From assembly GCA_000437895.1 (NCBI GenBank), contig FR902155.1:9495-73494 (forward strand): DNA of 64,000 nt. The letters run 5' to 3'. The first letter of the stretch is position 1; each line of letters opens with the position of its first letter. Both the position numbers and the translations under genes were made by a program. The notes beneath the pieces were generated by a model. That model saw nothing but the letters and a program-made list of their open reading frames with translations, did no database searches and was not told the DNA's origin. This DNA is from Clostridium sp. CAG:914 (GTDB lineage: Bacteria; Bacillota_I; Bacilli_A; RF39; UBA660). Positions 2,397-61,372 of the stretch are shown one piece after another.

Positions 2397-2939
2397 ATGG
2401 AAAATATAATTAATAATACTGAAGAAAAGATGATGAATGCTATTACAACACTTGAAAATAGATTTACTAATGTAAGAGCAGGAAGAGCAAATCCCAATAT
2501 GTTAGATGGAATAATGGTTGAATATTATGGTGTCCCAACTCCATTAAAACAATTAGCAAATATAACAATACCGGAAGCAAGACAATTATCTATTAAACCA
2601 TTTGATAAAAGTGCTTTAAATGGTATTGAAAAAGCTATATTTGAAGCAAACCTAGGAATTACTCCAAATAATAATGGTGAATCAATATTTTTAGTAGTTC
2701 CTGCTTTAACCGAAGACAGAAGAAAAGAGTTAGTTAAACAAGTACATCAAATGGCAGAAGAAGGTAAAATTGCCCTAAGAAATATTAGACAAGATGCTAA
2801 TAACGCCATTAAAAATCTTAAACTGCCAGAAGATGAAGAAAAAAGAGGAAACGAAAGAGTACAAAACTTAATTAATGAATATAATAAAATTATTGAAGAA
2901 AAATTAAAAGAAAAAGAAAAAGAATTAATGACAATTTAA
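2397..2939 (+). CDS. frr: Ribosome recycling factor
   Basis: The translation from MENIINNTEEKMMNAI...VRAGRANPNMLD...LRNIRQDANN is typical RRF. The ATG at 2397 has an AGAGGA RBS, whereas the ORF-track start at 2349 lacks one. Confidence 0.9.
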   Translation: MENIINNTEEKMMNAITTLENRFTNVRAGRANPNMLDGIMVEYYGVPTPLKQLANITIPEARQLSIKPFDKSALNGIEKAIFEANLGITPNNNGESIFLVVPALTEDRRKELVKQVHQMAEEGKIALRNIRQDANNAIKNLKLPEDEEKRGNERVQNLINEYNKIIEEKLKEKEKELMTI

Positions 2940-2944
2940 TGCAA

Positions 2945-3140
2945 TGATAAGGATTTAGTAGTATACCAAAAGTATTATAGAGAGTAAGTGTTGGTGTAAA
3001 CTTATATATAAGTAAGTATATGAATTCGCCCTTTAGCATTATGGGTAAGCCCGTTATAGCTTTAAGTGTATAACATACGTTATAAAAGAAGGTGGTACCG
3101 CGGATTAATAATTCGTCCTTTTGTTACCATCTTTTTATTT
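2945..3140 (+). promoter_or_regulatory. T-box riboswitch leader (Phe specifier) controlling pheST
   Basis: Conserved T-box core AAGGTGGTACCGCGG at 3089-3103. The leader has an AGAGA/GA-motif stem region, and a UUC (Phe) codon in GAATTCGCC is the candidate specifier. A terminator helix (3089-3097 pairing with 3125-3133) is followed by a U-tract at 3134-3140, just upstream of the pheS RBS. Confidence 0.8.
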
Positions 3141-7475: not shown

Positions 7476-9086
7476 ATATGTAATGATTATATCTTCATCA
7501 TTAATCTTTTCAAACAATGCAAAATTATCATCCTCATATAATAATTTATAATTATTATTATTTTTTAATATAATATAAAAAGTACTTAATTCTTTCTCTC
7601 CAGGATATTGTTTATATATAAGTAAATGACTAATATCATAAAATTTAAGTACTTTTTGATAATCTTTAGTTATACTTTTATAGTCATCAAATATATCATA
7701 ATCTAATCCACTAAATTCTTTAGTATATAAGTCTGCTCTAGAATCAATAAATACAGGAATATCGTTCAAAAGTAAATAACTACCAAAATTATATTCATTA
7801 AATAATCTAATATTTTTATAATCTAAATTATCTTTAATATATTCAGTAGCCAAAACAGGATATGTCTTCATATCTATATAATCTGGATTCTTAATACCTT
7901 GAATAAAATATATTCCACCAGCCATCATAATAGTTATCAACACCGTACAAATTACTGATTTTTTTCTAGACATAAAATTAATAATAGTATTATCAATAAC
8001 AAGATTATTATTAATAAAATATAAAGTAAATACTCTTGCAAAACAAAATATACCTACCAAAGCTAATAAAGATATATGTCTAATAGAAGTAACAGCCATA
8101 ATAGTAAGCCCTGTTATCATAAACAAATCTCTAATTTTAACACGCGTAAATAATGATAGAAAATAAACTTCAAAAATCATTATAATAACAAAAGGACTAG
8201 AACTCCAAGTAATCATTTGATGTTCAGCTATGTATTTTTGGCTATTTCCCAACATAGTCTTAATCATATAAGTATATGGTGTTCCTTTAAGTGGAGTAAT
8301 AAGACCAGTAAAAATACTAAGTAACATTATCAAAAATAAATATTTAATATTACTATTAACATCTAAATCAAATCTCTTCTTTAAAAATAAAGTAAACTTA
8401 TTATCTTTCTTTTTATTAACTATTAAAGATAAAATATATTCCGCAAAATAAGGAAGAAATATTATAAAATAAAATGGCCATACTGCTAAATGTATATTAC
8501 AAATAGCTAAAGAAATTAACAAAAGAAATAACAAATATTTTTTCTTACCATTTTTTAAAAACATTTCTATAAAATAAACTTCCAAAGCAAACAAAATAAA
8601 ACTAACTAATTGAGCTCTTGCTGTAACAAAACCTGATAATGATAAAGTAGCAATAAATGTTGAAAAAGCACTTATCGATAAATGATTAGTTATTTTATAT
8701 AAAGCAAAGAATAAGAAATATATAAGTATTAAAAATAATACAATTGAAGATATATATATACCAGTATATCCACCAATTAGGTATATCAAATATATAAATA
8801 CATCATATAACCAATGAGGATAAGTATATGGTAAACTACTATGAAATGAGAAATGATCTTTCATATCAATACCATTTTCAAGAATAAGTTTACCTATCTT
8901 AATCGTATAAAAAGTATCATTTTGTAATGTCTTTTTAACAAGAAATATAGCCAAAATACTTATACATATAACAAAAGCAATAACAAATATTTTTTTATTT
9001 TTCTTCATTGTCAATTGTTCTTTTTCTTGTTTTTCATCCATTTTATTTTTCTTAATCATATTTTTTTTACTTTTTGTCTTAGTCAT
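7461..9086 (-). CDS. Polytopic membrane protein with C-terminal extracytoplasmic domain (putative GT-C-type glycosyltransferase/membrane polymerase-like)
   Basis: 541 aa with a Lys-rich N-terminus, roughly 10-12 predicted TM helices and a soluble C-terminal domain of about 170 aa. The topology resembles GT-C/YfhO-like proteins. The family call is uncertain. Confidence 0.3.
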   Translation of the reverse strand: MTKTKSKKNMIKKNKMDEKQEKEQLTMKKNKKIFVIAFVICISILAIFLVKKTLQNDTFYTIKIGKLILENGIDMKDHFSFHSSLPYTYPHWLYDVFIYLIYLIGGYTGIYISSIVLFLILIYFLFFALYKITNHLSISAFSTFIATLSLSGFVTARAQLVSFILFALEVYFIEMFLKNGKKKYLLFLLLISLAICNIHLAVWPFYFIIFLPYFAEYILSLIVNKKKDNKFTLFLKKRFDLDVNSNIKYLFLIMLLSIFTGLITPLKGTPYTYMIKTMLGNSQKYIAEHQMITWSSSPFVIIMIFEVYFLSLFTRVKIRDLFMITGLTIMAVTSIRHISLLALVGIFCFARVFTLYFINNNLVIDNTIINFMSRKKSVICTVLITIMMAGGIYFIQGIKNPDYIDMKTYPVLATEYIKDNLDYKNIRLFNEYNFGSYLLLNDIPVFIDSRADLYTKEFSGLDYDIFDDYKSITKDYQKVLKFYDISHLLIYKQYPGEKELSTFYIILKNNNNYKLLYEDDNFALFEKINDEDIIITYNQKK

Positions 9087-9154
9087 TATATCACATCCTT
9101 ATCTAATATAACATAAAACGTAAGTATTATCAACGAAATTAAATGTAAACTGTC

Positions 9155-9183
9155 TTGAAGAAAATAAAATCTTATGCTAAAAT
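9155..9183 (+). promoter_or_regulatory. Sigma-A type promoter upstream of the topoisomerase gene
   Basis: -35 TTGAAG (9155-9160), 17-nt spacer, TGc-extended -10 TAAAAT (9178-9183). Confidence 0.5.
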
Positions 9184-9205
9184 TATCCTAGGAAGTGTGA
9201 TAAAT

Positions 9206-11104
9206 ATGACTTATAATGAAAAATCAATAAAAATTCTAGAAGGATTAGAAGCCGTAAGAAAAAGACCTGGTATGTATATAGGTAGCACTGATAAAAGAGG
9301 TCTACATCATTTAGTATGGGAAATCGTTGATAACTGCGTAGATGAAGCCCTAAATGGATTTGGTGATAACATTAAAATAGTTATGCATACTGATGGCTCT
9401 GTAAGTGTTACTGATAAAGGAAGAGGACTTCCTACAGGTATGCATGAATCAGGAAAGTCAACTCCAGAAGTAATATATACCGTACTTCACGCTGGTGGAA
9501 AATTCTCTGAAGGAGGATACAAAGTATCTGGAGGTCTTCATGGTGTTGGTGCTTCTGTCGTAAATGCTTTAAGTAGCTATTTAGAAGTAACAACAAGAAG
9601 AGATAAAGAAGAATATTATATTAGATTTGAAAATGGAGGAAAAGTTGCTATTCCTCTAAAAAAAATAGGTCCTACTACAAAAACTGGTACAACAGTTAGA
9701 TTTAAACCAGACAAAGAAATATTTCCAGACACAGAATTTAACTATAGTGTAATATGTGAAAGAATGCAAGAATGTGCATTTCTTATTAACGGATTAACTA
9801 TTGAAGTAGTTAATGAGATAGATGGAAGAAGTGAAAAATATTGTTACGAAAATGGATTATTATCTTTCTGTGAATATTTAAATGAAGGAAAAACAACATT
9901 ACATGATGTACTATGTTTTAATCAAACAAAAGATAGAATTAATGTAACCGTTTCCATGCAATATACTGATACATATTCTGAAAATATTATCTCCTTTGTA
10001 AATAACGTTAAAACATCTGATGGAGGAACACATGAAGTTGGTTTTAAAACAGCTATAACAAAAGTAATGAACGATTATGTAAAAGAACATAATTTAGTAA
10101 AAGGAAAAGACAAAACCTTTGAAGGGTCTGACGTTAGAGAAGGATTAACTGCAATAATATCTGTACAAATTCCTGAAGATTTACTTCAATTTGAAGGACA
10201 GACTAAATCTAAGTTAGGTACTCCAATAGCAAGAAGTATAACAGAAAGTATTACTACAGAAAAATTACATTATTTCCTAGAAGAAAATAAAGCTATTGCT
10301 ACAAAAATTGTTTCAAAAGCATTGAAAGGAAAAGAAGCTAGGGAAGCTGCCAGAAAAGCAAGAGAAGAATCCAGAAAAGGAAAAGATAGTAAAAAAACAG
10401 AAAAATTATTAAGTGGTAAATTAACACCAGCACAAAGTAGAAATAAATTAGAAAGAGAACTATTCATCGTAGAAGGAGATTCAGCAGGTGGCTCTGCAAA
10501 GCAAGGAAGAGATAGAAAAACACAGGCAATCCTTCCACTTAGAGGTAAAGTTTTAAATACTGAAAAAGCCAAATTAGAAGATTTATTTAAAAACGAAGAA
10601 ATAAACACTTTGATACACACCATTGGTGCAGGTTATGGCAATGACTTTGATATCAATGATTGTAATTATGGAAAAGTAATAATTATGACCGATGCTGACG
10701 ACGATGGAGCACATATTCAATGTCTACTATTAACATTCTTTTATAGATACATGAAGCCATTAATAGAAAATGGACGATTGTTTATTGCTATGCCACCATT
10801 ATATCGAGTTGTAGCTAATGGCAAAGAAAAATATTTATGGACAAACGAAGAACTAAAAGAATACACTAATGGTAAAAGTAATTATAAAATAAATAGATAT
10901 AAAGGATTAGGAGAAATGAATGCTGACCAATTATGTGATACCACAATGGATCCAAATAAAAGAAATCTAATAAAAGTTAATATAACAGACGCAGCATTAG
11001 CAGAAAAACGTGTAAGCATATTAATGGGTGATGCTGTAGAACCAAGAAAAAATTGGATAGAAGAAAACGTTATATTCTCTCTAGAAGATGCTTATAAAAT
11101 TTAA
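9206..11104 (+). CDS. Type IIA topoisomerase ATPase subunit B (GyrB/ParE family; no gyrA/parC adjacent, possibly parE)
   Basis: GHKL ATPase and TOPRIM motifs (LEGLEAVRKRPGMYIGST, GLHHLVWEIVDN, EGDSAGGSAKQGRDR, PLRGKVLN, IMTDADDDGAHI). The ATG at 9206 has a GGAAGTG RBS. The ORF-track start at 9155 lies in the promoter. Confidence 0.85.
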   Translation: MTYNEKSIKILEGLEAVRKRPGMYIGSTDKRGLHHLVWEIVDNCVDEALNGFGDNIKIVMHTDGSVSVTDKGRGLPTGMHESGKSTPEVIYTVLHAGGKFSEGGYKVSGGLHGVGASVVNALSSYLEVTTRRDKEEYYIRFENGGKVAIPLKKIGPTTKTGTTVRFKPDKEIFPDTEFNYSVICERMQECAFLINGLTIEVVNEIDGRSEKYCYENGLLSFCEYLNEGKTTLHDVLCFNQTKDRINVTVSMQYTDTYSENIISFVNNVKTSDGGTHEVGFKTAITKVMNDYVKEHNLVKGKDKTFEGSDVREGLTAIISVQIPEDLLQFEGQTKSKLGTPIARSITESITTEKLHYFLEENKAIATKIVSKALKGKEAREAARKAREESRKGKDSKKTEKLLSGKLTPAQSRNKLERELFIVEGDSAGGSAKQGRDRKTQAILPLRGKVLNTEKAKLEDLFKNEEINTLIHTIGAGYGNDFDINDCNYGKVIIMTDADDDGAHIQCLLLTFFYRYMKPLIENGRLFIAMPPLYRVVANGKEKYLWTNEELKEYTNGKSNYKINRYKGLGEMNADQLCDTTMDPNKRNLIKVNITDAALAEKRVSILMGDAVEPRKNWIEENVIFSLEDAYKI

Positions 11105-12075: not shown

Positions 12076-12311
12076 AGTTTTTTAAAAACAAATGAAAGAG
12101 ACGATACTATAGAGAATTAATAGAGAGTGACTAGTTGGTGGAAAGTCATATGAATTTATAGTATAGATCACTCTGGATGTATCTGTTTGATATTTAGAAT
12201 AGATCGGGTAATACCGTTAAATATAAATTAAGTGCACTATAGTTAGTGAATTAAGGTGGTACCACGGTTATAATCGTCCTTATATATAATAAAATATATA
12301 AGGATTTTTTT
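12076..12311 (+). promoter_or_regulatory. T-box riboswitch leader (Ile specifier) controlling ileS
   Basis: AGAGA stem-I region, with AUC in GATCAC as the candidate specifier codon. The T-box core AAGGTGGTACCACGG lies at about 12253-12267. The terminator stem TCCTTATATAT (12277-12287) / ATATATAAGGA (12294-12304) is followed by T7 (12305-12311) and then a GGAGG RBS. Confidence 0.8.
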
Positions 12312-12325
12312 ATGGAGGAAAAAAT

Positions 12326-15300
12326 ATGTTTAAAGAATTAAGAAAAGAAGAAGTAGAAAAAAATGAAGAGTATTTTGCAAACTATTGGAAAGAACATGAT
12401 ATTTTAAATAAATCTATTCAAAATAGAAGTGACTATTGGGTGTTTTATGATGGACCAGCAACTGCAAATGGATTTCCTGGATTACATCACATGGTTGCTA
12501 AGTTCTTGAAAGACTCTTTTTGCAAATACAAAACAATGCAAGGTTATAAAGTACTAAGAAAAGTAGGATGGGATACCCATGGCTTACCAGTAGAACTTGA
12601 AGCTGAAAAATCATTAGGATTTACTAATAAGAATGATATTGAAAAATATGGAATTAAAGAATTTAATGAAAAGTGTCGTGAATTAGTTTGGAAAAACGAA
12701 AAAGCCTTTTCTGATTTAACTACCAAAATGGGTCAATTTATTGATCTAGAACATCCATATGTTACTTATGATAATAATTACATCGAAACAGAATGGTGGA
12801 TACTTAAAAAATTCTTTCAAGAAGGACTATTTTACAAAGGACACAAAATACTACCATATTGTCCTAGATGTGGTACTGGTCTTGCTAGCCACGAAGTAGC
12901 ACAAGGATATAAAGAAATTACCGTAGAAACAGTAATTGTTCCATTTAAAAGAAAAGATTCAGATGAATACTTTCTAGTTTGGACAACAACTCCTTGGACT
13001 TTAATTTCAAATGTTGCTTTGTGTGTTAATCCAAAAGAAAAATATGTAAGAGTAGAATCAAAAGGATATAAATTCATATTAGCTAAATCCCTATGCAAAA
13101 GTGTTCTAGGAGATGAATATACAATTATCGATGAATTTTTAGGTAAAGATCTAGAATATATTGAATATGAACAATTAATACCAGAATTAAAAGTAGATAA
13201 AAAAGCCTTTTATGTAACCTGTGATAACTATGTTACCATGTCTGATGGAACTGGTATTGTCCATATCGCTCCAGCATTTGGCCAAGATGATGCTAATGTT
13301 GGTAAAAAATACGACTTACCATTCCTAAATCCTGTTGCAGAAGACGCAACATATATAGAAGGACCATGGAAAGGAATGAAAGTTTTTGATGCTGACGTTG
13401 AAGTAATAAAATATTTAAAAACTAATGATAAATTATTTAAGAAGCAAAAAATGGTTCACAATTATCCTCACTGTTGGCGTTGTGATAGTCCATTATTATA
13501 TTATTCAAAACCAAGTTATTATCTTGAAATAACTAAAATAAAAGATAAAATAATTGAAGCCAACAAAAAAGTACAATGGTATCCAGAATTTGTTGGAGAA
13601 AAAAGATTTGCTAATTGGTTAGAAAACTTAAATGATTGGGCTATATCAAGAAATAGATATTGGGGAACACCACTTCCACTTTGGACTTGTTCTTGTGGAC
13701 ATAGCGAAATGATAGGAAGTAGACAAGAATTAAAAGATAAAGCTATAGAAAACATTGATTTAGATATTGATCTACATAGACCTTATGTGGATGATATCCA
13801 TATAAAATGTCCAAAATGTGGAAAAACAATGACAAGAGTAAAAGATGTAATAGATTGCTGGTTTGATTCAGGATCCATGCCATTCAGTCAATATCACTAT
13901 CCATTTGAAAACAAAGAATTATTTGAAACACAATTTCCAGCTGACTTTATATCAGAAGGAATTGATCAAACAAGAGGATGGTTTTATACATTACTTGTAA
14001 TATCTACATTTGTTATGGGAACATCACCTTATAAAAGAGTATTAGTTAACGACTTATTACTAGATAAAAATGGTAAAAAAATGAGTAAATCTAAAGGAAA
14101 TATTGTAGAACCATTTAGTACTATGAAAAAATATGGTGCTGATACAGTAAGATTTTATTTACCATATGTAAGTCCCGTATGGACTCCACTAAAATTTGAT
14201 GAAGAAGGATTAAAAGAAGTTCACTCCAAATTTATGAATCCACTTAAAAATTCTTATACTTTCTTTCAAATGTATGCAAATATTGATAATATTGATCCAA
14301 GAACTTTTAACGTCGACTATAATGACTTAGAAGAGATTGATAAATGGATGTTAAGCAAATATAATAAACTTGTTAAAAATGTAACAGCTGGATATGAAGA
14401 ATTTGATTTAAATAAAGTAGTTAGATTAGTTACAGACTTTACTTCTGAAGACTTGTCTAATTGGTATATAAGAAGAAATAGAAAAAGATTTTGGTCTAGT
14501 GATTTAGATAATTCCAAAAAAGGTGTATATCAAACAACATATCAAGTACTTGTTGGTTTATCACAACTAGTAGCCCCAATAATTCCATTTATTTCTGAAG
14601 AAATATATCAAAATTTAACTGATGAAGAATCAGTTCATCTAAGTGATTTTCCTAAATATGAAGAAGATAAAATAGATGATTATTTAGAAGTCAAAATGGA
14701 CTTAGTAAGAGATTTAATTAGTCTTGGTAGAAATGTTAGAGAAGTATCAAAAATAAAAGTAAGACAACCTATATCAGACGTTATACTAGATGGTAAAAAT
14801 AAAGAACTATTAAATGATGTTATAGATCTTATTAAAGAAGAACTTAATGTTAAAAACATTATATTTACTAATGATTTATCTAACTATATGAATTTTACAA
14901 TTAAACCTAACTTTAAAAATGCCGGTAGTGTCATCGGATCAAAAATGAAAGATTTTGTTAATTTCTTAGCTAACTTATCTAGTGAAGATATTACCAAACT
15001 TAAAAATAATGAAGAAATGTATTTTGAAGATATACTTATAACTAATGATTTAATTGATATAAAAATTAATGCTAAAGAAGGCTTTGATGTTGCTATGGAA
15101 AATAATAATTTTATTATATTAAATACAACGTTAACAGACGATTTAATCAATGAAGGTCTAGCACGTGAAACAATATCTAAAATACAACAAATAAGAAAGA
15201 GTAATAATTTTGACATTGTAGATAGAATAAAAGTATATTATGAAGCTAATGATGAATATACTAATAGAATTAATGACTTTCTAGATATGATTAAAGATGA

Positions 15301-15394
15301 AACTTTAGCTATTGAATTTAATAAAGAAAATAATTTAAAAGATGAATATGATATTAATGATTATAAAGTAAAATTTAAACTTGAAAGGTTATAA
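12326..15394 (+). CDS. ileS: Isoleucine--tRNA ligase (long, 1022 aa form)
   Basis: Class I aaRS with a HIGH-region (PGLHHMVAKF), KMSKS, editing domain and the zinc-binding CPRCG/CPKCG motifs. Confidence 0.95.
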   Translation: MFKELRKEEVEKNEEYFANYWKEHDILNKSIQNRSDYWVFYDGPATANGFPGLHHMVAKFLKDSFCKYKTMQGYKVLRKVGWDTHGLPVELEAEKSLGFTNKNDIEKYGIKEFNEKCRELVWKNEKAFSDLTTKMGQFIDLEHPYVTYDNNYIETEWWILKKFFQEGLFYKGHKILPYCPRCGTGLASHEVAQGYKEITVETVIVPFKRKDSDEYFLVWTTTPWTLISNVALCVNPKEKYVRVESKGYKFILAKSLCKSVLGDEYTIIDEFLGKDLEYIEYEQLIPELKVDKKAFYVTCDNYVTMSDGTGIVHIAPAFGQDDANVGKKYDLPFLNPVAEDATYIEGPWKGMKVFDADVEVIKYLKTNDKLFKKQKMVHNYPHCWRCDSPLLYYSKPSYYLEITKIKDKIIEANKKVQWYPEFVGEKRFANWLENLNDWAISRNRYWGTPLPLWTCSCGHSEMIGSRQELKDKAIENIDLDIDLHRPYVDDIHIKCPKCGKTMTRVKDVIDCWFDSGSMPFSQYHYPFENKELFETQFPADFISEGIDQTRGWFYTLLVISTFVMGTSPYKRVLVNDLLLDKNGKKMSKSKGNIVEPFSTMKKYGADTVRFYLPYVSPVWTPLKFDEEGLKEVHSKFMNPLKNSYTFFQMYANIDNIDPRTFNVDYNDLEEIDKWMLSKYNKLVKNVTAGYEEFDLNKVVRLVTDFTSEDLSNWYIRRNRKRFWSSDLDNSKKGVYQTTYQVLVGLSQLVAPIIPFISEEIYQNLTDEESVHLSDFPKYEEDKIDDYLEVKMDLVRDLISLGRNVREVSKIKVRQPISDVILDGKNKELLNDVIDLIKEELNVKNIIFTNDLSNYMNFTIKPNFKNAGSVIGSKMKDFVNFLANLSSEDITKLKNNEEMYFEDILITNDLIDIKINAKEGFDVAMENNNFIILNTTLTDDLINEGLARETISKIQQIRKSNNFDIVDRIKVYYEANDEYTNRINDFLDMIKDETLAIEFNKENNLKDEYDINDYKVKFKLERL

Positions 15395-20255: not shown

Positions 20256-20281
20256 ATATATTTTATCATGTAAATAAATGC

Positions 20282-20310
20282 TTTACATTTCAGCATTAAA
20301 ATGATATAAT
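20282..20310 (+). promoter_or_regulatory. Sigma-A promoter for acyl-AMP ligase gene
   Basis: -35 TTTACA (20282-20287), 17-nt spacer, TGa-extended -10 TATAAT (20305-20310). AAGGAG RBS precedes the ATG at 20360. Confidence 0.6.
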
Positions 20311-20359
20311 AAGTGCAAATTTTCGGGATTACATTAATTTCGATTGAGTAAGGAGAAAA

Positions 20360-22216: not shown

Positions 22217-22235
22217 TCTACATTTGTAGTGTACA

Positions 22236-22306
22236 TAAGTATGTTTTATTATGTAAATAAATGCTTTGCATTTCAACATTAAAATGATATAATAAGTGCA
22301 AAATTG
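22236..22306 (+). repeat. Duplicated copy of the 20255-20325 promoter/leader segment
   Basis: About 62 of 68 nt identical to the sequence upstream of the full-length ligase gene, including the -35 (here TTTGCA) and the TGaTATAAT -10 (22288-22293). Confidence 0.7.
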
Positions 22307-22314
22307 AAAAAATC

Positions 22315-22545
22315 ATAAACAATAGTAAATTATCATTTCGCGATATTCCAAGAAAAATAAAAATTGTAAACGAAATACCTTTAACAAAAGCTTATAAAAA
22401 AGATTATATAACTGCTAAAAATAATGGGCTATCAGGCGATGAAATAACAATAATTACCAATGAAACTAATATCGGATTAGAAAGTTATAAAATAATTTAT
22501 CCAAATAACTTACAAAAAATAAAAAGAAATAGTTTACATTTGTAG
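22315..22545 (+). pseudogene. 3'-terminal remnant (last 77 codons) of a second, paralogous acyl-AMP ligase gene
   Basis: Open frame with no start codon, translating to ...SFRDIPRKIKIVNEIPLTKAYKKDY...IGLESYKIIYP..., homologous to the C-terminus of the 20360-22216 product (ISFRDIPGKLKLVDSIPMTPAMKKDY...MGLEGYDIIYP). It ends in the same 3'-flank motif ACATTTGTAG. Confidence 0.65.
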
Positions 22546-22584
22546 ACTATTTCTTTATTTTATGTTAGAATTATCATAGAGGTC

Positions 22585-24375
22585 GTGATATGTATGGGAT
22601 TTAATTTAGGAATGGCTTGCTCGGGATGTATATATATTGTTCTTGTTACAATGATGTATTTTAATAAAAAAAGAATAAGTACATATGAAAATAAGATATA
22701 TGGACATCTATTATTAGTATCTGTATTACAGATTATAATGGGATTGTTAGGATTTATTACTATATATTATTATCCAAATGCCTTATTAATCAAAAGAATA
22801 ATTAATGTTGCATATTTATTTAGTTTAATATGTTGGGCATTAATATTTACACTTTATGTTATATCTATTTCTTTTAATAATAAACAAAATAAAAAAATAG
22901 ATTTCATAATCTTTGCACTATTTTTAATTGTATTTTTAATTATATCAGCATTACCATTGGGTTATTATAATATAAATAATTTTGTTTATACAAGTGGTTC
23001 TGCTGTTAGCTTTACGTATTTTATGTCTTTTCTATGTATTCTTACAATAATTTTTTGTGTTATTAAAAACAGAAAGAATCTATTATCAAAGAAATATATA
23101 CCAGTAGCATCATTCTTTTTAATAGGAATTGTAGCTTTAATTTTTCAAATAAATAATCCTAAATTATTTTTAATTAGTCCTATGGAAATGATTGTAACAA
23201 TAATTATGTATTTTACAATAGAAAATCCCGATGTAAAAATGTTAACAGAAGTATATCGTGCTAAAGAAATAAGTGATAATGCCAACGAAGAAAAAACAAT
23301 GTTTTTATTTAATGTAACTAAAGAAATTAAAACTGTTACCAATAGTATTAATAGTCATACTGATACAATTCTTGAAGAAACTTCCAATAAAAATATAAAC
23401 GTTGCTGTTGTTAATGATAATGCCATGGAAATAAAAAGTGATATAGCTCAATTTAACACTATGACTAATGAGCTTTTAGATATATCAAGCATTGATGCAG
23501 CAAATATTAAAGTATATAATACTAAATATAATATTAAACTTATTTTAAAACAAATTATAACTACATATAAAGATAAATGTAATAACATTGAATTTAGATC
23601 AAATATAGCAAGTGATCTACCAGAATATATGTATGGAGATAGTATCAATCTTAAAAAAATATTAATTTCTCTTCTAGATAATGCTATAAAATATACAAAT
23701 AATGGATATGTAGAACTTAATGTTTCATGTGTTAAGAAACAAGATATATGTAGATTAATCATTTCAATAGAAGATTCAGGTATTGGAATAAAATCAGAAG
23801 AATTAGACAAAGTATTCAATAAAAATAAAGAAGGATTAAATAGAGATAATCTAAAAAATAACTTATATACAATAAAGAAAATATTAACAATTATGGGGGG
23901 TGCCATCATAACTAATAGTACATATGGTAAGGGTACAACAATGAAGGTTATTTTAGATCAAAAGATAGTTCCAGATGAATTTTCCCCTGAACTAAAATTA
24001 TATAACAATAAAAAGATATTACTTATTGATTCAAACGAAAACACATATAAAATATTCAAAAAAATATTGCATAGTGATAATATTAATATTGATTATGTTG
24101 GAGTAGGGAAGTTAGGACTTGATAAAATTAGAGAAAAAGAAAAATATGATTTAGTATTTATAGAAGATGATTTAAAACCAATAGATGGATATGAAATTAT
24201 TAAAAAGCTAAATAATATTAAAACATTTAATTCTCCAGTTGTATTATTAACCAAAGATAGCAATATTCAATATAGTGATGATTATAAAAAATATGGTTTC
24301 AAAAATTATTTATTGAAACCAATAAAGAAAAAAGACCTATTTGAAATAATAGATACACTAACAAGTGATAAATAA
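22585..24375 (+). CDS. Membrane pseudo-histidine kinase fused to pseudo-receiver domain (degenerate hybrid sensor)
   Basis: An N-terminal domain of about 200 aa with six or more TM helices. A HisKA-like region follows in which the phospho-His position reads TKEIKT (Lys replaces His). The HATPase_c N-box LLDNAIKYT and G-boxes IEDSGIGI/YGKGTT are retained. The C-terminal REC-like domain (LLKPI retained) has Glu at the phospho-Asp position (DLVFIEDDLKPIDG). Paralogous to 50814-52499. Confidence 0.6.
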   Translation: MICMGFNLGMACSGCIYIVLVTMMYFNKKRISTYENKIYGHLLLVSVLQIIMGLLGFITIYYYPNALLIKRIINVAYLFSLICWALIFTLYVISISFNNKQNKKIDFIIFALFLIVFLIISALPLGYYNINNFVYTSGSAVSFTYFMSFLCILTIIFCVIKNRKNLLSKKYIPVASFFLIGIVALIFQINNPKLFLISPMEMIVTIIMYFTIENPDVKMLTEVYRAKEISDNANEEKTMFLFNVTKEIKTVTNSINSHTDTILEETSNKNINVAVVNDNAMEIKSDIAQFNTMTNELLDISSIDAANIKVYNTKYNIKLILKQIITTYKDKCNNIEFRSNIASDLPEYMYGDSINLKKILISLLDNAIKYTNNGYVELNVSCVKKQDICRLIISIEDSGIGIKSEELDKVFNKNKEGLNRDNLKNNLYTIKKILTIMGGAIITNSTYGKGTTMKVILDQKIVPDEFSPELKLYNNKKILLIDSNENTYKIFKKILHSDNINIDYVGVGKLGLDKIREKEKYDLVFIEDDLKPIDGYEIIKKLNNIKTFNSPVVLLTKDSNIQYSDDYKKYGFKNYLLKPIKKKDLFEIIDTLTSDK

Positions 24376-24436: not shown

Positions 24437-24613
24437 TTAACGATTGCAATTGCATTGATGAGGATGATTGTTGCAGCAATTATTTCCATTATTAAAAAAT
24501 AATATAAAGAATATTATCAAAACTATAATTATAATCCAAAGGCCACCACCTGAACCATAGCCATCATAACCACCGTAACCATATCCGTATCCATATCCAG
24601 GATATCCATACAT
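24437..24613 (-). CDS. YjcZ-like small Gly/Tyr-rich sporulation-associated membrane peptide (58 aa)
   Basis: MYGYPGYGYGYGYGGYDGYGSGGGLW, then a hydrophobic helix IIIIVLIIFFILFF, then a Cys-rich tail NCCNNHPHQCNCNR. AGGAG RBS 10 nt upstream of the ATG at 24613. The ORF-track start at 24652 lacks an RBS. Confidence 0.5.
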   Translation of the reverse strand: MYGYPGYGYGYGYGGYDGYGSGGGLWIIIIVLIIFFILFFNNGNNCCNNHPHQCNCNR

Positions 24614-24834
24614 AATATCAATACTCCTTTCTTTAATATTATATTGTAACATGATAAAAGTATATACTAAGTATACCTATTTAGTAAAAAATAGAACTTA
24701 ACATAATATACATTATAGGAAATAAGAATGTTTAAAAATAAAACAAAATATCATTATAATTATTAATATATATTATATTCGTTAAACTTCATAGAAATTT
24801 AATTTAATAATATTAATACAATTATCCATCTTTT

Positions 24835-50813: not shown

Positions 50814-52499
50814 TTATTTAAAATATTTTTCTAACAAAGTAATTAACTTATTTCTACTAATAGGTTTTAATATATAATCATCAAAACCATATTTCTTATA
50901 ACTACCCGTATATTCCACATTATTATCTCTAGTCATCAAAATAAGTATAGAATTAAAACCACTAATTAATTTTAATTTTTTAACAGTCTCTATATAAGAC
51001 ATATAATTAAGTTCATCACTCATTAATATCAAATCATATTTCTCATTATTTCTTATCCTATTTAAACATTCTTTCCCATAACTAACAAAAGTCAAATCAA
51101 CATTATCATCATCTAGACACTTAGATATTAATTTTTGATTAGAAATATTTTCATCTACCACTAAAATACTTATTTTCTTCAAATAATTAGTATATTTTTC
51201 TAAACTATCATCTTTATCAATAACCATCTTTTGATCTAATATAATATTTATTTTATTATTCTCTAATATTATAAATCCACCCATTAAAATTATTCTATTA
51301 TATATATTCTTATATAAATCATTATTTTCTATATCTATAGCACCATTTCCTTCAATAGATATAATCAATCTACATATATCATTTTTATTTACTGAATTAA
51401 TATTTAAAATAATATTATCACTATTAACAAACAATTCTAATCCATCAATCAAACATTCCTTTAAAGTAATTGCATCCCCATACAAATTATCAGGAATATT
51501 ACTATCAATAGATAAATTCAAATTATCCCTATTATAAGATTTTACTAAAGTTTTAATCAATAATTTAACATCATACTTTTTATTATATATTTTTATCTTC
51601 GAGGCCTCTATCTCATTAATATTAAACATTTTATTACACATAGTATTTAACATAGATACTTCATTAATAATCTCACGCATACTATTATCTTTATCTATAT
51701 TTCTATCATCCAATACATCATAAGCTATTTTATTAATATTTTCAGTTGACCTCTTCACCATTTTAGACATATCAAACAAAAACATAGACTTATCATAATT
51801 AGATTTATCTAATTTATCTTTTGACTTTTTCATTTCTAATAACATTTTTACATCAGGATTTTCTATTGTAAAATACATCAAATAATTAACTAAAGTAATC
51901 GTAATAGAAATAACAATTAAATAAGGATTATATTTATATACAAAAAATAAAAATATACAAGACACCACTACAAAAAGCATAGGTATATGTCTCTTATCTA
52001 AATGTTTAATGTTTAAAAGAGGTACAATAACTGATGATAATAAATATAACAAGCAAAGAAAAGCTGTCACCCCACTTGCTGATCCACCTATAGTTAAAGC
52101 ATTATTACCATTAGAAATAATATTCACTTTCAAAATAGCCACTAATAATATTGATATACTATCTATAATAGCTAATATATAAACTATTTTTACATATATC
52201 TTTTTAAGATTTGGAAAAGTAACCAATAACATATATAAAAATAAACAAGTTGCTATTATTATTAATTGAATAAAATCTATCTTATTTAATAAAGAAATTA
52301 TTTTAATAGCAATAGGAGTTAAAGGAAACATAGCCATAATTCTCAAAACAACAACTAAAACACAATCAATAGTACTACATATTAGCATTATAGAATATAT
52401 TCTATTTTCAATTAAATTAATTCTTTTTCTTAAGAAATATGCAAAACACAATAATAAAGAAAAAAGCATTGCATAAAAAGGTAATTGTAATTCACTCAT
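50814..52499 (-). CDS. Membrane pseudo-histidine kinase fused to pseudo-receiver domain (paralog of 22585-24375, more degenerate)
   Basis: Same architecture as the first paralog, with shared segments YFTIENPDVKML, KSMFLF, CRLIISIE and KKYGF...ILKPI. Lys at the phospho-His position (MSKMVKRS), degenerate G-boxes, and Ser at the phospho-Asp position (DLILMSDEL). AAGGTGGA RBS. Confidence 0.6.
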   Translation of the reverse strand: MSELQLPFYAMLFSLLLCFAYFLRKRINLIENRIYSIMLICSTIDCVLVVVLRIMAMFPLTPIAIKIISLLNKIDFIQLIIIATCLFLYMLLVTFPNLKKIYVKIVYILAIIDSISILLVAILKVNIISNGNNALTIGGSASGVTAFLCLLYLLSSVIVPLLNIKHLDKRHIPMLFVVVSCIFLFFVYKYNPYLIVISITITLVNYLMYFTIENPDVKMLLEMKKSKDKLDKSNYDKSMFLFDMSKMVKRSTENINKIAYDVLDDRNIDKDNSMREIINEVSMLNTMCNKMFNINEIEASKIKIYNKKYDVKLLIKTLVKSYNRDNLNLSIDSNIPDNLYGDAITLKECLIDGLELFVNSDNIILNINSVNKNDICRLIISIEGNGAIDIENNDLYKNIYNRIILMGGFIILENNKINIILDQKMVIDKDDSLEKYTNYLKKISILVVDENISNQKLISKCLDDDNVDLTFVSYGKECLNRIRNNEKYDLILMSDELNYMSYIETVKKLKLISGFNSILILMTRDNNVEYTGSYKKYGFDDYILKPISRNKLITLLEKYFK

Positions 52500-59364: not shown

Positions 59365-59463
59365 AAACTGCACTCCCCACAAGCATTGTACCAAATTGTT
59401 TTCTCAAAGTACACTAATCATAAGAAAATTTAGAAAAAAATCCATATAAATATATAATCAACT

Positions 59464-59547
59464 AAAAAATAGTATCTTTTATAAATATTTAACTATTTAT
59501 TGACACTATTTATAATAATCATATTCTATCCATAATACCTTTTCATA
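59464..59547. repeat. 84-bp direct repeat, copy 1 (pairs with 61289-61372)
   Basis: About 81 of 84 nt identical to the second copy. Includes the TTGACA-containing segment TATTTATTGACACTATTT. This copy overlaps the last 7 codons of the 59526-59810 ORF. Confidence 0.7.
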
Positions 59548-59810: not shown

Positions 59811-61258
59811 TATCTTCTCCCTCTTCTGTTTCTTTTTTCTATTTCAGATAATATTTTATTTCTTAATTTATGATTATTATTCAAGAACCAATCGCCTACC
59901 TTTATTAAATTTTCAGCAGTAAATTTTTGAAGAGTTTTATTCCTACGCAAGAAATCATGGCCTACTATTTTTAAGTTTGGAAGATATAGTTCTTGAAGAG
60001 TATTATTACAACTCAAGAACCAATCGCCTACCTCCGTTAAGTTTTCGGCAGTAAATTTTTGAAGGGAGGTATTAAAACACAAGAAACCATTGCCTACCTT
60101 TGTTAAGTTTGGAAGATATAGTTCTTGAAGAGTATTATTACAACTCAAGAACCAATCGCCTACCTCCGTTAAGTTTTCGGCAGTAAATTTTTGAAGGGAG
60201 GTATTATAAGACAAGAATTTATCACCTATATCATAAATTTTATTCATCTTAAGTGATATTATTTTTCCATCTTTATCAGTTATAATTTCTAAACTTTTAT
60301 TATTGTCACCTAATATTGTTATCTTTTTGCCACTATCAATATTATCTATTTCTATCTTATTTATATCTTTTATTACATCACAAAAACTATCACTTAGTTT
60401 TTTGTCATATAACCTAATACTTTTATTAGACAAATCTATTATAAAATAATCAATTATTAAATATCTACTTTTATCATACCTTTTTACATTAAAATTATCA
60501 ATAATTATATTATCAGGGCAATAATATACATTATTTATTTCATAATTATATTTATAATATTTTCCATCATTAGCTCTAACATAACCTTTTATTTCAAAGT
60601 TTTCACTTTTATACCTTTGAATTATACCTTTATATCTTTCAAATGATTCTGTTAATCCAGGAATTATATTATCTAAATTATTTGAAAAAGTAGCATCTGG
60701 ATTGTTAACTGTATGATTATATCTATTTTTTATTGATAAAGTATTTGTCCCATCTTTTGTAAACTGAATACTTATTACAGATGTTCCATACTCGTCTTCT
60801 CTTTTTGGTTTCTTAAAGTCTTCTCTTTTTATATCTGATACATTTTTCTTAACAGCAAAAAATACTCTACACCTATTCAATCTTCCACCTTTAAAAGTAC
60901 AAAGTTCTTCTCTTCGAGCATAATATTTTCTAAATGCTTGAATATCTCCTTCATTATAACATTCTACTAAAACATAACCTGCTTCAGACATAAGTTCTTC
61001 AGGCGTTTTAATCATGCCTAATTCATTATTATTCTCTACATCAACCAAACTATATATAAAATTTTTAAATTCACTTTCTTTTCCATTGGCTACAATGTCA
61101 TCAAATAGAGAATGACTTTCGTGAAAATTATCACTTAAAAGTTTTAATAGTTTTCCAGGTTCCTCTAATAAAGTTGGAAATGATTCTCTACAAAAATGAT
61201 ACATCTTTTCACCATATTTTTTTCTAATTACTTTTAAATCGTCTATCATAATACTCAC
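59810..61258 (-). CDS. BspA-type leucine-rich repeat (LRR_5-like) protein with unknown N-terminal domain, no signal peptide
   Basis: C-terminal repeats of about 44 aa, FTAENLxxVGDWFLxxNxTLQELYLPNLxxVGxxFL, matching the F..C..L..L.LP..L..IG..AF pattern. The N-terminal 330 aa is unassigned. Confidence 0.55.
   Translation of the reverse strand: MSIMIDDLKVIRKKYGEKMYHFCRESFPTLLEEPGKLLKLLSDNFHESHSLFDDIVANGKESEFKNFIYSLVDVENNNELGMIKTPEELMSEAGYVLVECYNEGDIQAFRKYYARREELCTFKGGRLNRCRVFFAVKKNVSDIKREDFKKPKREDEYGTSVISIQFTKDGTNTLSIKNRYNHTVNNPDATFSNNLDNIIPGLTESFERYKGIIQRYKSENFEIKGYVRANDGKYYKYNYEINNVYYCPDNIIIDNFNVKRYDKSRYLIIDYFIIDLSNKSIRLYDKKLSDSFCDVIKDINKIEIDNIDSGKKITILGDNNKSLEIITDKDGKIISLKMNKIYDIGDKFLSYNTSLQKFTAENLTEVGDWFLSCNNTLQELYLPNLTKVGNGFLCFNTSLQKFTAENLTEVGDWFLSCNNTLQELYLPNLKIVGHDFLRRNKTLQKFTAENLIKVGDWFLNNNHKLRNKILSEIEKRNRRGRR
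59850..60245. repeat. 132-bp tandem DNA repeats (about 3 copies) within the LRR gene
   Basis: Unit beginning GTTTGGAAGATATAG at 59975 and again at 60107. The two central copies are nearly identical over more than 110 nt and encode the 44-aa LRR units. Confidence 0.7.
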
Positions 61259-61288
61259 CTACTATATCTACATTTTAACACATATATT

Positions 61289-61372
61289 AAAAAATAGTAT
61301 CTTTTATAAATATTTAACTATTTATTGACACTATTTCTAATAATTATATTCTATCCATAATACCTTTTCATA
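61289..61372. repeat. 84-bp direct repeat, copy 2 (pairs with 59464-59547)
   Basis: Located between the LRR gene start and the transporter gene end. See copy 1. Confidence 0.7.

Follow-up and report, generated by a model that had tools for sequence, protein, structure and literature searches.

A near-perfect 39-nucleotide inverted repeat between two pseudo-kinase paralogs of Clostridium sp. CAG:914 very probably reflects an invariant hinge peptide at a sensor-module boundary

Pherotype-type polymorphism is a feature of receptor kinases such as AgrC of staphylococci and ComP of B. subtilis. RetS-like 7TMR-DISM hybrid sensor kinases signal without being phosphorylated themselves, and in polymorphic toxins short junction motifs, VENN in CdiA and PxxxxDPxGL in Rhs proteins, delimit exchangeable modules. 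The comC/comD pherotype polymorphism that includes the S. pneumoniae receptor ComD has been described in the literature (PMC5629823). Here, we compare with these systems two paralogous genes in a stretch of 64,000 nucleotides (nt) from Clostridium sp. CAG:914 (assembly GCA_000437895.1, contig FR902155.1, forward-strand positions 9,495 to 73,494), called the window throughout and numbered from its first letter. Gene A (CDE95744.1; 22594..24375, plus strand) encodes 593 amino acids (aa) counted from the ATG used by the database proteins, and gene B (CDE95774.1; 50814..52499, minus strand) encodes 561 aa with the same architecture. The two genes share a near-perfect repeat in inverted orientation. 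Very probably, this repeat is made up of the codons of an invariant, hinge-like peptide written under strong codon bias, and the breakpoints of module exchange in the protein family fall at the same hinge.

The initial annotation of this DNA had reported a 38-nt, nearly identical inverted segment in paralogs of otherwise moderate similarity. Both copies were recovered. The window contains exactly two occurrences of the pattern, at 23206-23243 on the plus strand and at 51841-51878 on the minus strand, with one C/T exchange as the sole difference. The full match is in fact 39 nt long and consists of 13 whole codons that are in frame in both genes. Copy 1 (23206..23244, plus strand) comprises codons 205-217 of gene A and copy 2 (51840..51878, minus strand) codons 208-220 of gene B; both encode MYFTIENPDVKML, and the single mismatch lies in the proline codon, which is CCC in A and CCT in B. 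Copy 1 is unchanged in six further strains and in three contigs carrying a second sensor allele of gene A (allele 2), copy 2 in five further strains and in contig L094. Comparison of the gene pair at the DNA level revealed no uniformly high identity (38% in protein, 56% over the nucleotides of the aligned codons), and the match persists over its 39 nt in the codon alignment. The segment is an outlier, as had been claimed: with 38/39 identical positions it has the highest nucleotide identity of the pair, against 31/39 for the second-best 13-codon window. Synonymous differences in the neighboring conserved peptides were also borne out. For instance, the peptide run DICRLIISIE is encoded by 5 of 10 identical codons in A and B, where 5.6 are expected from codon usage, and the other conserved peptide runs show synonymous differences at roughly the level predicted from codon usage. 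In 100 dinucleotide shuffles of the window, no 38-nt match arose. Measured against random sequence, chance is far exceeded; given the peptide and the codon usage, the match is only mildly unusual.

How much of the identity follows from the peptide was calculated with a codon-usage null drawn from the window, which has a GC content of 25% and a strong codon bias. Given 13 identical residues, 8.9 identical codons are expected and 12 were seen (P(≥12) = 0.032). Over the whole A/B pair, 124 identical residues are encoded by identical codons compared with 128.9 expected. The synonymous sites of the two genes are therefore saturated, and there is no general homogenization. An empirical null was composed of pairs of homologs that have both modules less than 50% identical and carry the same 13-aa peptide (n = 32). 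Two of these pairs reach at least 38/39 (about 0.06) and five reach at least 37/39. When only the 9-codon core is considered, 11.5% of comparably diverged pairs attain the 26/27 of A and B or more, and gene A shares 37 of the 39 nt with a homolog from a water-deer metagenome-assembled genome (MAG) to which it is 33% identical in protein. The A/B match falls in the upper range that peptide invariance and AT-rich codon bias together lead one to expect. Because the peptide cannot change and the genome has a GC content of only 25% with strongly biased codons, two ancient paralogs would arrive at almost the same hinge DNA, and neither gene conversion nor a DNA or RNA signal nor inversion would be needed to account for it.

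Gene conversion between A and B was among the initial proposals. A short tract that homogenized only these 39 nt would explain why the proportion of synonymous differences (pS) is 0.16 in the motif and 0.58 gene-wide, and why 12 of 13 codons are identical where 8.9 are expected. Synonymous divergence along the gene pair supports the proposal in part: the motif does stand out, but the excess is not significant once its post-hoc selection is allowed for. Moreover, identity ends at the edges of the peptide, with only 4/12 and 6/12 nt matching directly outside it, and flanking homology in which a tract could start is lacking. The remaining synonymous sites are saturated, and all strains read (six A, five B and four metagenome contigs) carry the same fixed, copy-specific CCC/CCT difference. 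Concerted evolution at the motif within a genome was sought in five other genomes and not seen in any of them; their paralog pairs agree at 22-25 of the 27 nt of the core, with no excess likeness. A conversion tract is thus an improbable source of the repeat.

A conserved nucleic-acid signal had likewise been considered. We retrieved 80 homologous loci from species-representative genomes with the degenerate peptide Y[FH]TIENPD (80 of at least 592 loci in GTDB representatives). All degenerate codon positions of the motif vary among them. Threonine is encoded by ACA (39), ACT (22), ACC (12) and ACG (7), isoleucine by ATT (41), ATA (35) and ATC (4), and proline by CCT (41), CCA (28), CCG (6) and CCC (5). 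As synonymous positions are free to vary, there is no conserved nucleic-acid signal, and Rfam gave no match over the motif at gathering thresholds. It would favor a DNA or RNA element kept for its own sake, be it a protein-binding site, a regulatory RNA or a programmed translational signal, that the 39-mer is perfectly conserved within the species in both genes. Such invariance, however, is expected at 98-99% genome identity, and the metagenome contigs were picked by an exact match to the 39-mer; for the same reason the lack of any motif difference in the allele-2 contigs was discarded as a sign of extra constraint. An element of this kind is extremely improbable.

The peptide marks a large protein family. 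When 1.84 billion representative proteins were scanned with residues 1-300 of A, 1468 relatives were recovered, mostly of about 600 aa, 762 of them at E < 1e-10. In the best 150 representatives the signature M-Y-[F/H]-T-I-E-N-P-D is nearly invariant. Asparagine, proline and aspartate occur in all 150, threonine and glutamate in 149, and methionine and isoleucine in 144; the second position is occupied by tyrosine or phenylalanine and the third by phenylalanine or histidine. The string 'TIENPD' was not found in the literature searched, and the domain of seven transmembrane helices (7-TM) shared by the family matches no Pfam family above threshold. An AlphaFold 2 model of the gene A protein, built from a 40-sequence alignment with a predicted local distance difference test (pLDDT) score of 82.6, contains seven transmembrane (TM) helices, the last at residues 194-208, followed by a break at 209-211 and a long helix (212-264) that runs into a DHp-like hairpin. 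In this model the shared peptide, M205-L217, covers the end of TM7 (MYFT), the three-residue break (IEN) and the start of the signaling helix (PD and onward). We infer from this arrangement that the motif may serve as a mechanical hinge between sensor and transmitter.

Downstream of the 7-TM sensor and the hinge motif, the gene A protein is composed of DHp-like helices without the phospho-acceptor histidine, a HATPase_c domain and a REC domain with glutamate at the position of the aspartate. The gene B protein is also His-less, has a degenerate ATPase domain and carries serine at the aspartate position of its REC domain. Both have a receiver fold, with 54.5 bits (A) and 49.4 bits (B) against Response_reg (PF00072; cut-off 30.2). 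HATPase_c (PF02518) scores 53 bits in A (cut-off 26.4), with the N-box asparagine and the G1 motif DSGIG present; B has no Pfam match to HATPase_c, and in the alignment its N-box and G1 sites show gaps or degenerate residues. HisKA has no Pfam match in either protein. In the family alignment, the column of the H-box histidine is occupied by lysine in both (canonical FLSSMSHE versus FLFNVTKE in A). The phospho-acceptor column of the receiver, as read from the alignment, holds aspartate in 57 of 81 full-length representatives, glutamate in A and serine in B. Judged by these residues, A and B appear to lack both the phospho-acceptor histidine and the receiver aspartate that define a hybrid sensor histidine kinase, and together with the undetectable HATPase_c domain of B this makes the earlier label 'pseudo-kinase' a fair one. 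Across the family, the phospho-acceptor histidine is kept in only 17/81 full-length representatives, and a HisKA match was found in only 14 of 40 members. The family apparently is an undescribed group of roughly 600-aa hybrid histidine-kinase-like proteins, mostly His-less, of low-GC gut Bacillota.

Regarding known proteins, the best partial NCBIfam matches of A and B are hybrid kinases, among them TorS, ArcB, LuxQ and BarA, all far under the cut-offs. The 7TMR-DISM_7TM model (PF07695) reaches 22.8 bits in A, under its gathering cut-off of 29, and is matched by one of 40 family members. Two RetS structures, 6dk7 and 6dk8, rank near the top of the PDB matches, and the RetS kinase core aligns with gene A at E = 2e-15. 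Since A and B lack the phospho-acceptor histidine and aspartate, they probably signal through protein-protein interaction or ATP binding in a manner analogous to RetS.

The second part of our reading concerns the position of the motif within the family. We split the 80 loci at the motif and compared sensor and transmitter identities pairwise. The two are almost uncorrelated (r = 0.10). In true orthologs both halves are similarly conserved (for example 93/88, 92/94 and 79/78% identity), and in 28 discordant cross-locus pairs the transmitters are 75-99% identical and the sensors 24-45%. The maximum-likelihood changepoint of identity lies between -15 and +12 nt from the motif start in 28/28 discordant pairs, with a median of -2. 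Sensor and transmitter histories are decoupled, and the junction is at the hinge. One of these discordant pairs consists of two paralogs in a single genome, about 10 kilobases (kb) apart on the same strand of contig CAKOPG010000001.1 (L016 and L041), which have about 900 nt of transmitter DNA that are 100% identical, and sensors that are 42% identical in protein. Their identical transmitters are due either to recent gene conversion or to an assembly-collapsed repeat. In a related species, sensor entries of 217 aa (P0370, 34 member sequences) stop right after the motif, consistent with contigs breaking at the repeated transmitter module. A candidate paralog chimera (P0371/L096), which fuses the L002 sensor at the motif with the transmitter of L025, a locus of the same species, was rejected as a probable assembly or polymerase chain reaction artefact. 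Its contig is 2.3 kb long, has 1.26x coverage and includes another, unrelated join; at the crossover the sequences overlap by only 5-10 nt.

Within the species, gene A itself exists in two sensor alleles. The exchanged cassette (22553..23200, plus strand) begins about 40 nt upstream of the ATG and stops 6 nt short of the motif. Over this cassette, allele 1 of the window and allele 2 of the contigs L092 and L095 are 60-78% identical, and the surrounding DNA is 98-100% identical. In these two contigs, which had been retrieved with the 39-mer, gene A is 98-100% identical from the motif onward and 60-78% identical over the preceding 610 nt. Relative to strain L081, too, allele 2 is embedded in DNA that is 98-100% identical on both sides of the divergent block. 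Between the sensors of alleles 1 and 2 (A1 and A2), the synonymous divergence (dS) is 1.21 and the nonsynonymous divergence (dN) 0.27, compared with a dS of 0.046 in the rest of the gene. The A1 and A2 sensors are 62% identical in protein, and other family members are at most 40% identical to either. Allele 2 is common, forming a 409-member cluster with many members on contigs longer than 100 kb. Gene A thus combines the marks of a pherotype-like polymorphism, namely sharply bounded within-species divergence limited to the sensor and two common alleles. A co-varying signal-peptide or processing gene was not found next to gene A; the AMP-binding gene that precedes gene A and the genes that follow it show 98-100% identity between the alleles. 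A homolog search with the allele-2 sensor as query, made for its donor lineage, returned fragments only. In one 303-aa variant of the allele-2 gene A (P0368), an internal stretch is deleted in frame, so that sensor residue 110 is followed directly by the ATPase region. Gene B has a variable sensor block of its own (52020..52379, minus strand; gene nt 121-480, codons 41-160). Two strain alleles are 46-80% identical in this block and 98-100% identical elsewhere (dS 0.62 and dN 0.35, versus 0.02 and 0.003).

The hinge would be the first homologous stretch that follows unalignable sensors, and conversion tracts running through the transmitter would end there. At the same place, any sensor could be joined to any transmitter without loss of function. 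As first homology and functional joint at once, the hinge would be where recombination and conversion tracts of alleles and paralogs begin or end. We infer that it can couple any sensor to any transmitter and that recombinants joined there stay functional. A different explanation assigns the crossover to the motif DNA itself, which as a microhomology of 27-39 nt would drive cassette exchange, with the A/B identity as a part of the system. All 28 discordant pairs and the A1/A2 boundary do break within about 20 nt of the motif, and the motif is the only near-identical DNA common to all family members. However, the same pattern would emerge if conversion tracts merely stop where homology ends, or if only domain-boundary recombinants remain functional. 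Furthermore, the variable block of gene B stops about 140 nt before the motif, and A and B show no exchange with each other. A preferred crossover in the motif DNA therefore appears unlikely. The broader proposal, according to which the hinge DNA, kept nearly identical in all paralogs by the invariant peptide and the AT codon bias, is the crossover point at which 7-TM sensors are reassorted with largely His-less transmitters across paralogs as well as strains and related species of uncultured gut Bacillota, giving rise to balanced polymorphisms like A1/A2, is a tentative one that we regard as possible but doubtful. Hence, the recombination role suspected in the initial annotation survives in part: in gene A and in the family the motif is a sharp boundary of sensor exchange, but A and B show no exchange with each other.

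Several points weigh against the reading of the repeat as invariant hinge codons under codon bias at a family-wide module boundary. Twelve identical codons out of 13 still lie in the upper tail given the peptide (P about 0.03-0.06), and a small contribution from an old conversion tract is conceivable. The family comparison covers only 80 of the at least 592 loci and is built on MAG assemblies, in which near-identical transmitter repeats may collapse or be mis-joined. In the structural model, confidence falls just after the motif, with a mean pLDDT of 64 at residues 211-220.

The initial annotation had also regarded the two copies as a substrate for inversion. As arms of an invertible 28.6-kb segment, driven by a recombinase or by RecA, they would swap the sensor and transmitter halves of A and B. 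The copies are indeed inverted and in frame, and they straddle a dif-like site at the replication terminus, so that inversion would keep the genes co-oriented with replication. A chimera of the A N-terminus and the B C-terminus, searched in 5.8 billion proteins, nevertheless had no full-length match near 100%. Its best matches were the parental proteins, of the B type with 72% identity over 99% coverage and of the A type with 60%. These parental proteins are abundant, with at least 120 A clusters, a 382-member B cluster and the allele-2 cluster of gene A mentioned above. Synteny is kept around both genes: altered gene order around A or B was not present in any strain contig, and non-parental flanks were absent from 15 contigs (11 from strains and four from metagenomes). 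The metagenome contigs stem from a scan with the bare 39-mer, which returned these four, all parental. A junction-specific scan that combined the left flank of A and the motif with either right flank yielded no match and was discarded, the left flank being allele-specific. In the strain contigs, the genes lying up to 10 kb from A or B gave no Pfam match to a recombinase or invertase family, except for an IS1595 transposase upstream of B in one strain. No inversion is detectable in the assemblies, which number in the hundreds, and although rare events in a subpopulation are conceivable, an invertible segment is highly improbable.

Around the dif-like site, at about 24.4-25 kb, the GC skew changes sign, falling from about +0.2 to values of -0.3 to -0.5, and the genes switch from plus to minus orientation. 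The site itself, ATTTCCTATAATGTATATTATGTTAAGT (24696-24723, minus strand), is the best match in the window and agrees at 23/28 positions with the B. subtilis dif sequence; 30 shuffles reached at most 22. Given the flips in skew and gene orientation and the dif-like site, the terminus of replication appears to fall within the window. The end of gene A is about 320 nt to the left of this site; gene B is located on the other replichore, at a distance of 26-28 kb. The interval from gene A to the site contains a small open reading frame (ORF; 24437-24613, minus strand), a 58-aa gene call in other strains. It begins with MYGYPGYGYGYGYGGYDGYGSGGGLW, followed by a hydrophobic helix and a Cys/Asn-rich tail, and encodes a Gly/Tyr-rich small membrane protein that presumably resembles YjcZ-type small sporulation proteins.

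Upstream of gene A, the strains L081-L084 have two tandem AMP-binding (acyl-adenylate ligase-like) genes. Relative to L081, about 1.68 kb (8026-9705) are missing from the window at 22217-22593. A promoter-like 66-nt repeat (copies at 20257-20322 and 22240-22305) and the last approximately 247 nt of the second gene (22299-22545) are left over there. The contig L092 has another resolution of this locus, a single hybrid gene. Directly upstream of gene B are two tandem, paralogous acyltransferase genes (PF01553; 52573-53502 and 53507-54436, minus strand), each encoding 309 aa. They have about 73-77% DNA identity over aligned blocks and are kept in other strains. Further away, the window contains two T-box leaders on the plus strand (2935-3123 and 12083-12284), whose Rfam scores of 110 and 113.5 bits exceed the gathering threshold; the second leader precedes a 1022-aa isoleucyl-tRNA synthetase-like gene (12326-15394). 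An 85-nt direct repeat, 98% identical (59463-59547 and 61288-61372), contains TTGACA and other promoter-like sequence. Its copies adjoin two neighboring minus-strand ORFs of about 480 aa, the first of which has five overlapping copies of a 132-nt repeat at a spacing of 66 nt (59869-60264).

The repeat is ordinary in its cause; its location is informative, and the junction is moderately interesting. For genome scanning it carries a caution, as an invariant 13-residue peptide in a genome with 25% GC yields a near-perfect 39-nt repeat between paralogs that are 56% identical. Since the peptide alone can produce such a repeat, similar cases should be tested first against a codon-bias null. Moreover, the site picks out an apparently undescribed family of membrane sensors, with no Pfam model for the 7-TM part and with halves that are exchanged at one invariant hinge. 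This pattern of exchange suggests that sensing in these abundant gut bacteria is under strong diversifying or balancing selection with regard to what is perceived, and the hinge offers a naturally validated splice point for the construction of chimeric sensors.

How does this locus compare with described systems? With invertible segments and shufflons it has in common two short, inverted, near-identical repeats that are in frame within coding sequence, and inversion between them would swap the halves of the proteins. In contrast to shufflons, only one orientation is present in hundreds of assemblies, a dedicated recombinase is not found nearby, and the repeat is explained by peptide constraint. 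The closest parallel to the allelic variation of gene A is provided by ComD, AgrC and ComP, where divergent, common alleles are also confined to the membrane sensor of a kinase-type receptor (dS of about 1.2 versus 0.05 in gene A). Gene A differs from these receptors in that no adjacent peptide-signal gene co-varies with it, its flanks being 98-100% identical, and in that its protein, a 7-TM hybrid with a fused REC domain, has neither the phospho-acceptor histidine nor the receiver aspartate. In addition, the same junction in the gene A family also divides modules between paralogs and species. With RetS the gene A protein shares the combination of a 7-TM sensor, a DHp/HATPase region and a receiver, and its sequence suggests that a canonical phosphorelay is dispensable or lost. 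Unlike RetS, its match to the Pfam 7TMR-DISM_7TM model is below threshold, it has no periplasmic DISMED2 domain, and its hosts are low-GC gut Bacillota. Finally, CdiA and Rhs proteins vary in a C-terminal toxin, whereas the variable module here is an N-terminal membrane sensor with no immunity gene and no orphan cassettes. Nevertheless, as with VENN and PxxxxDPxGL, a short peptide that does not vary lies exactly where a conserved module gives way to a highly variable one that is exchanged by recombination.

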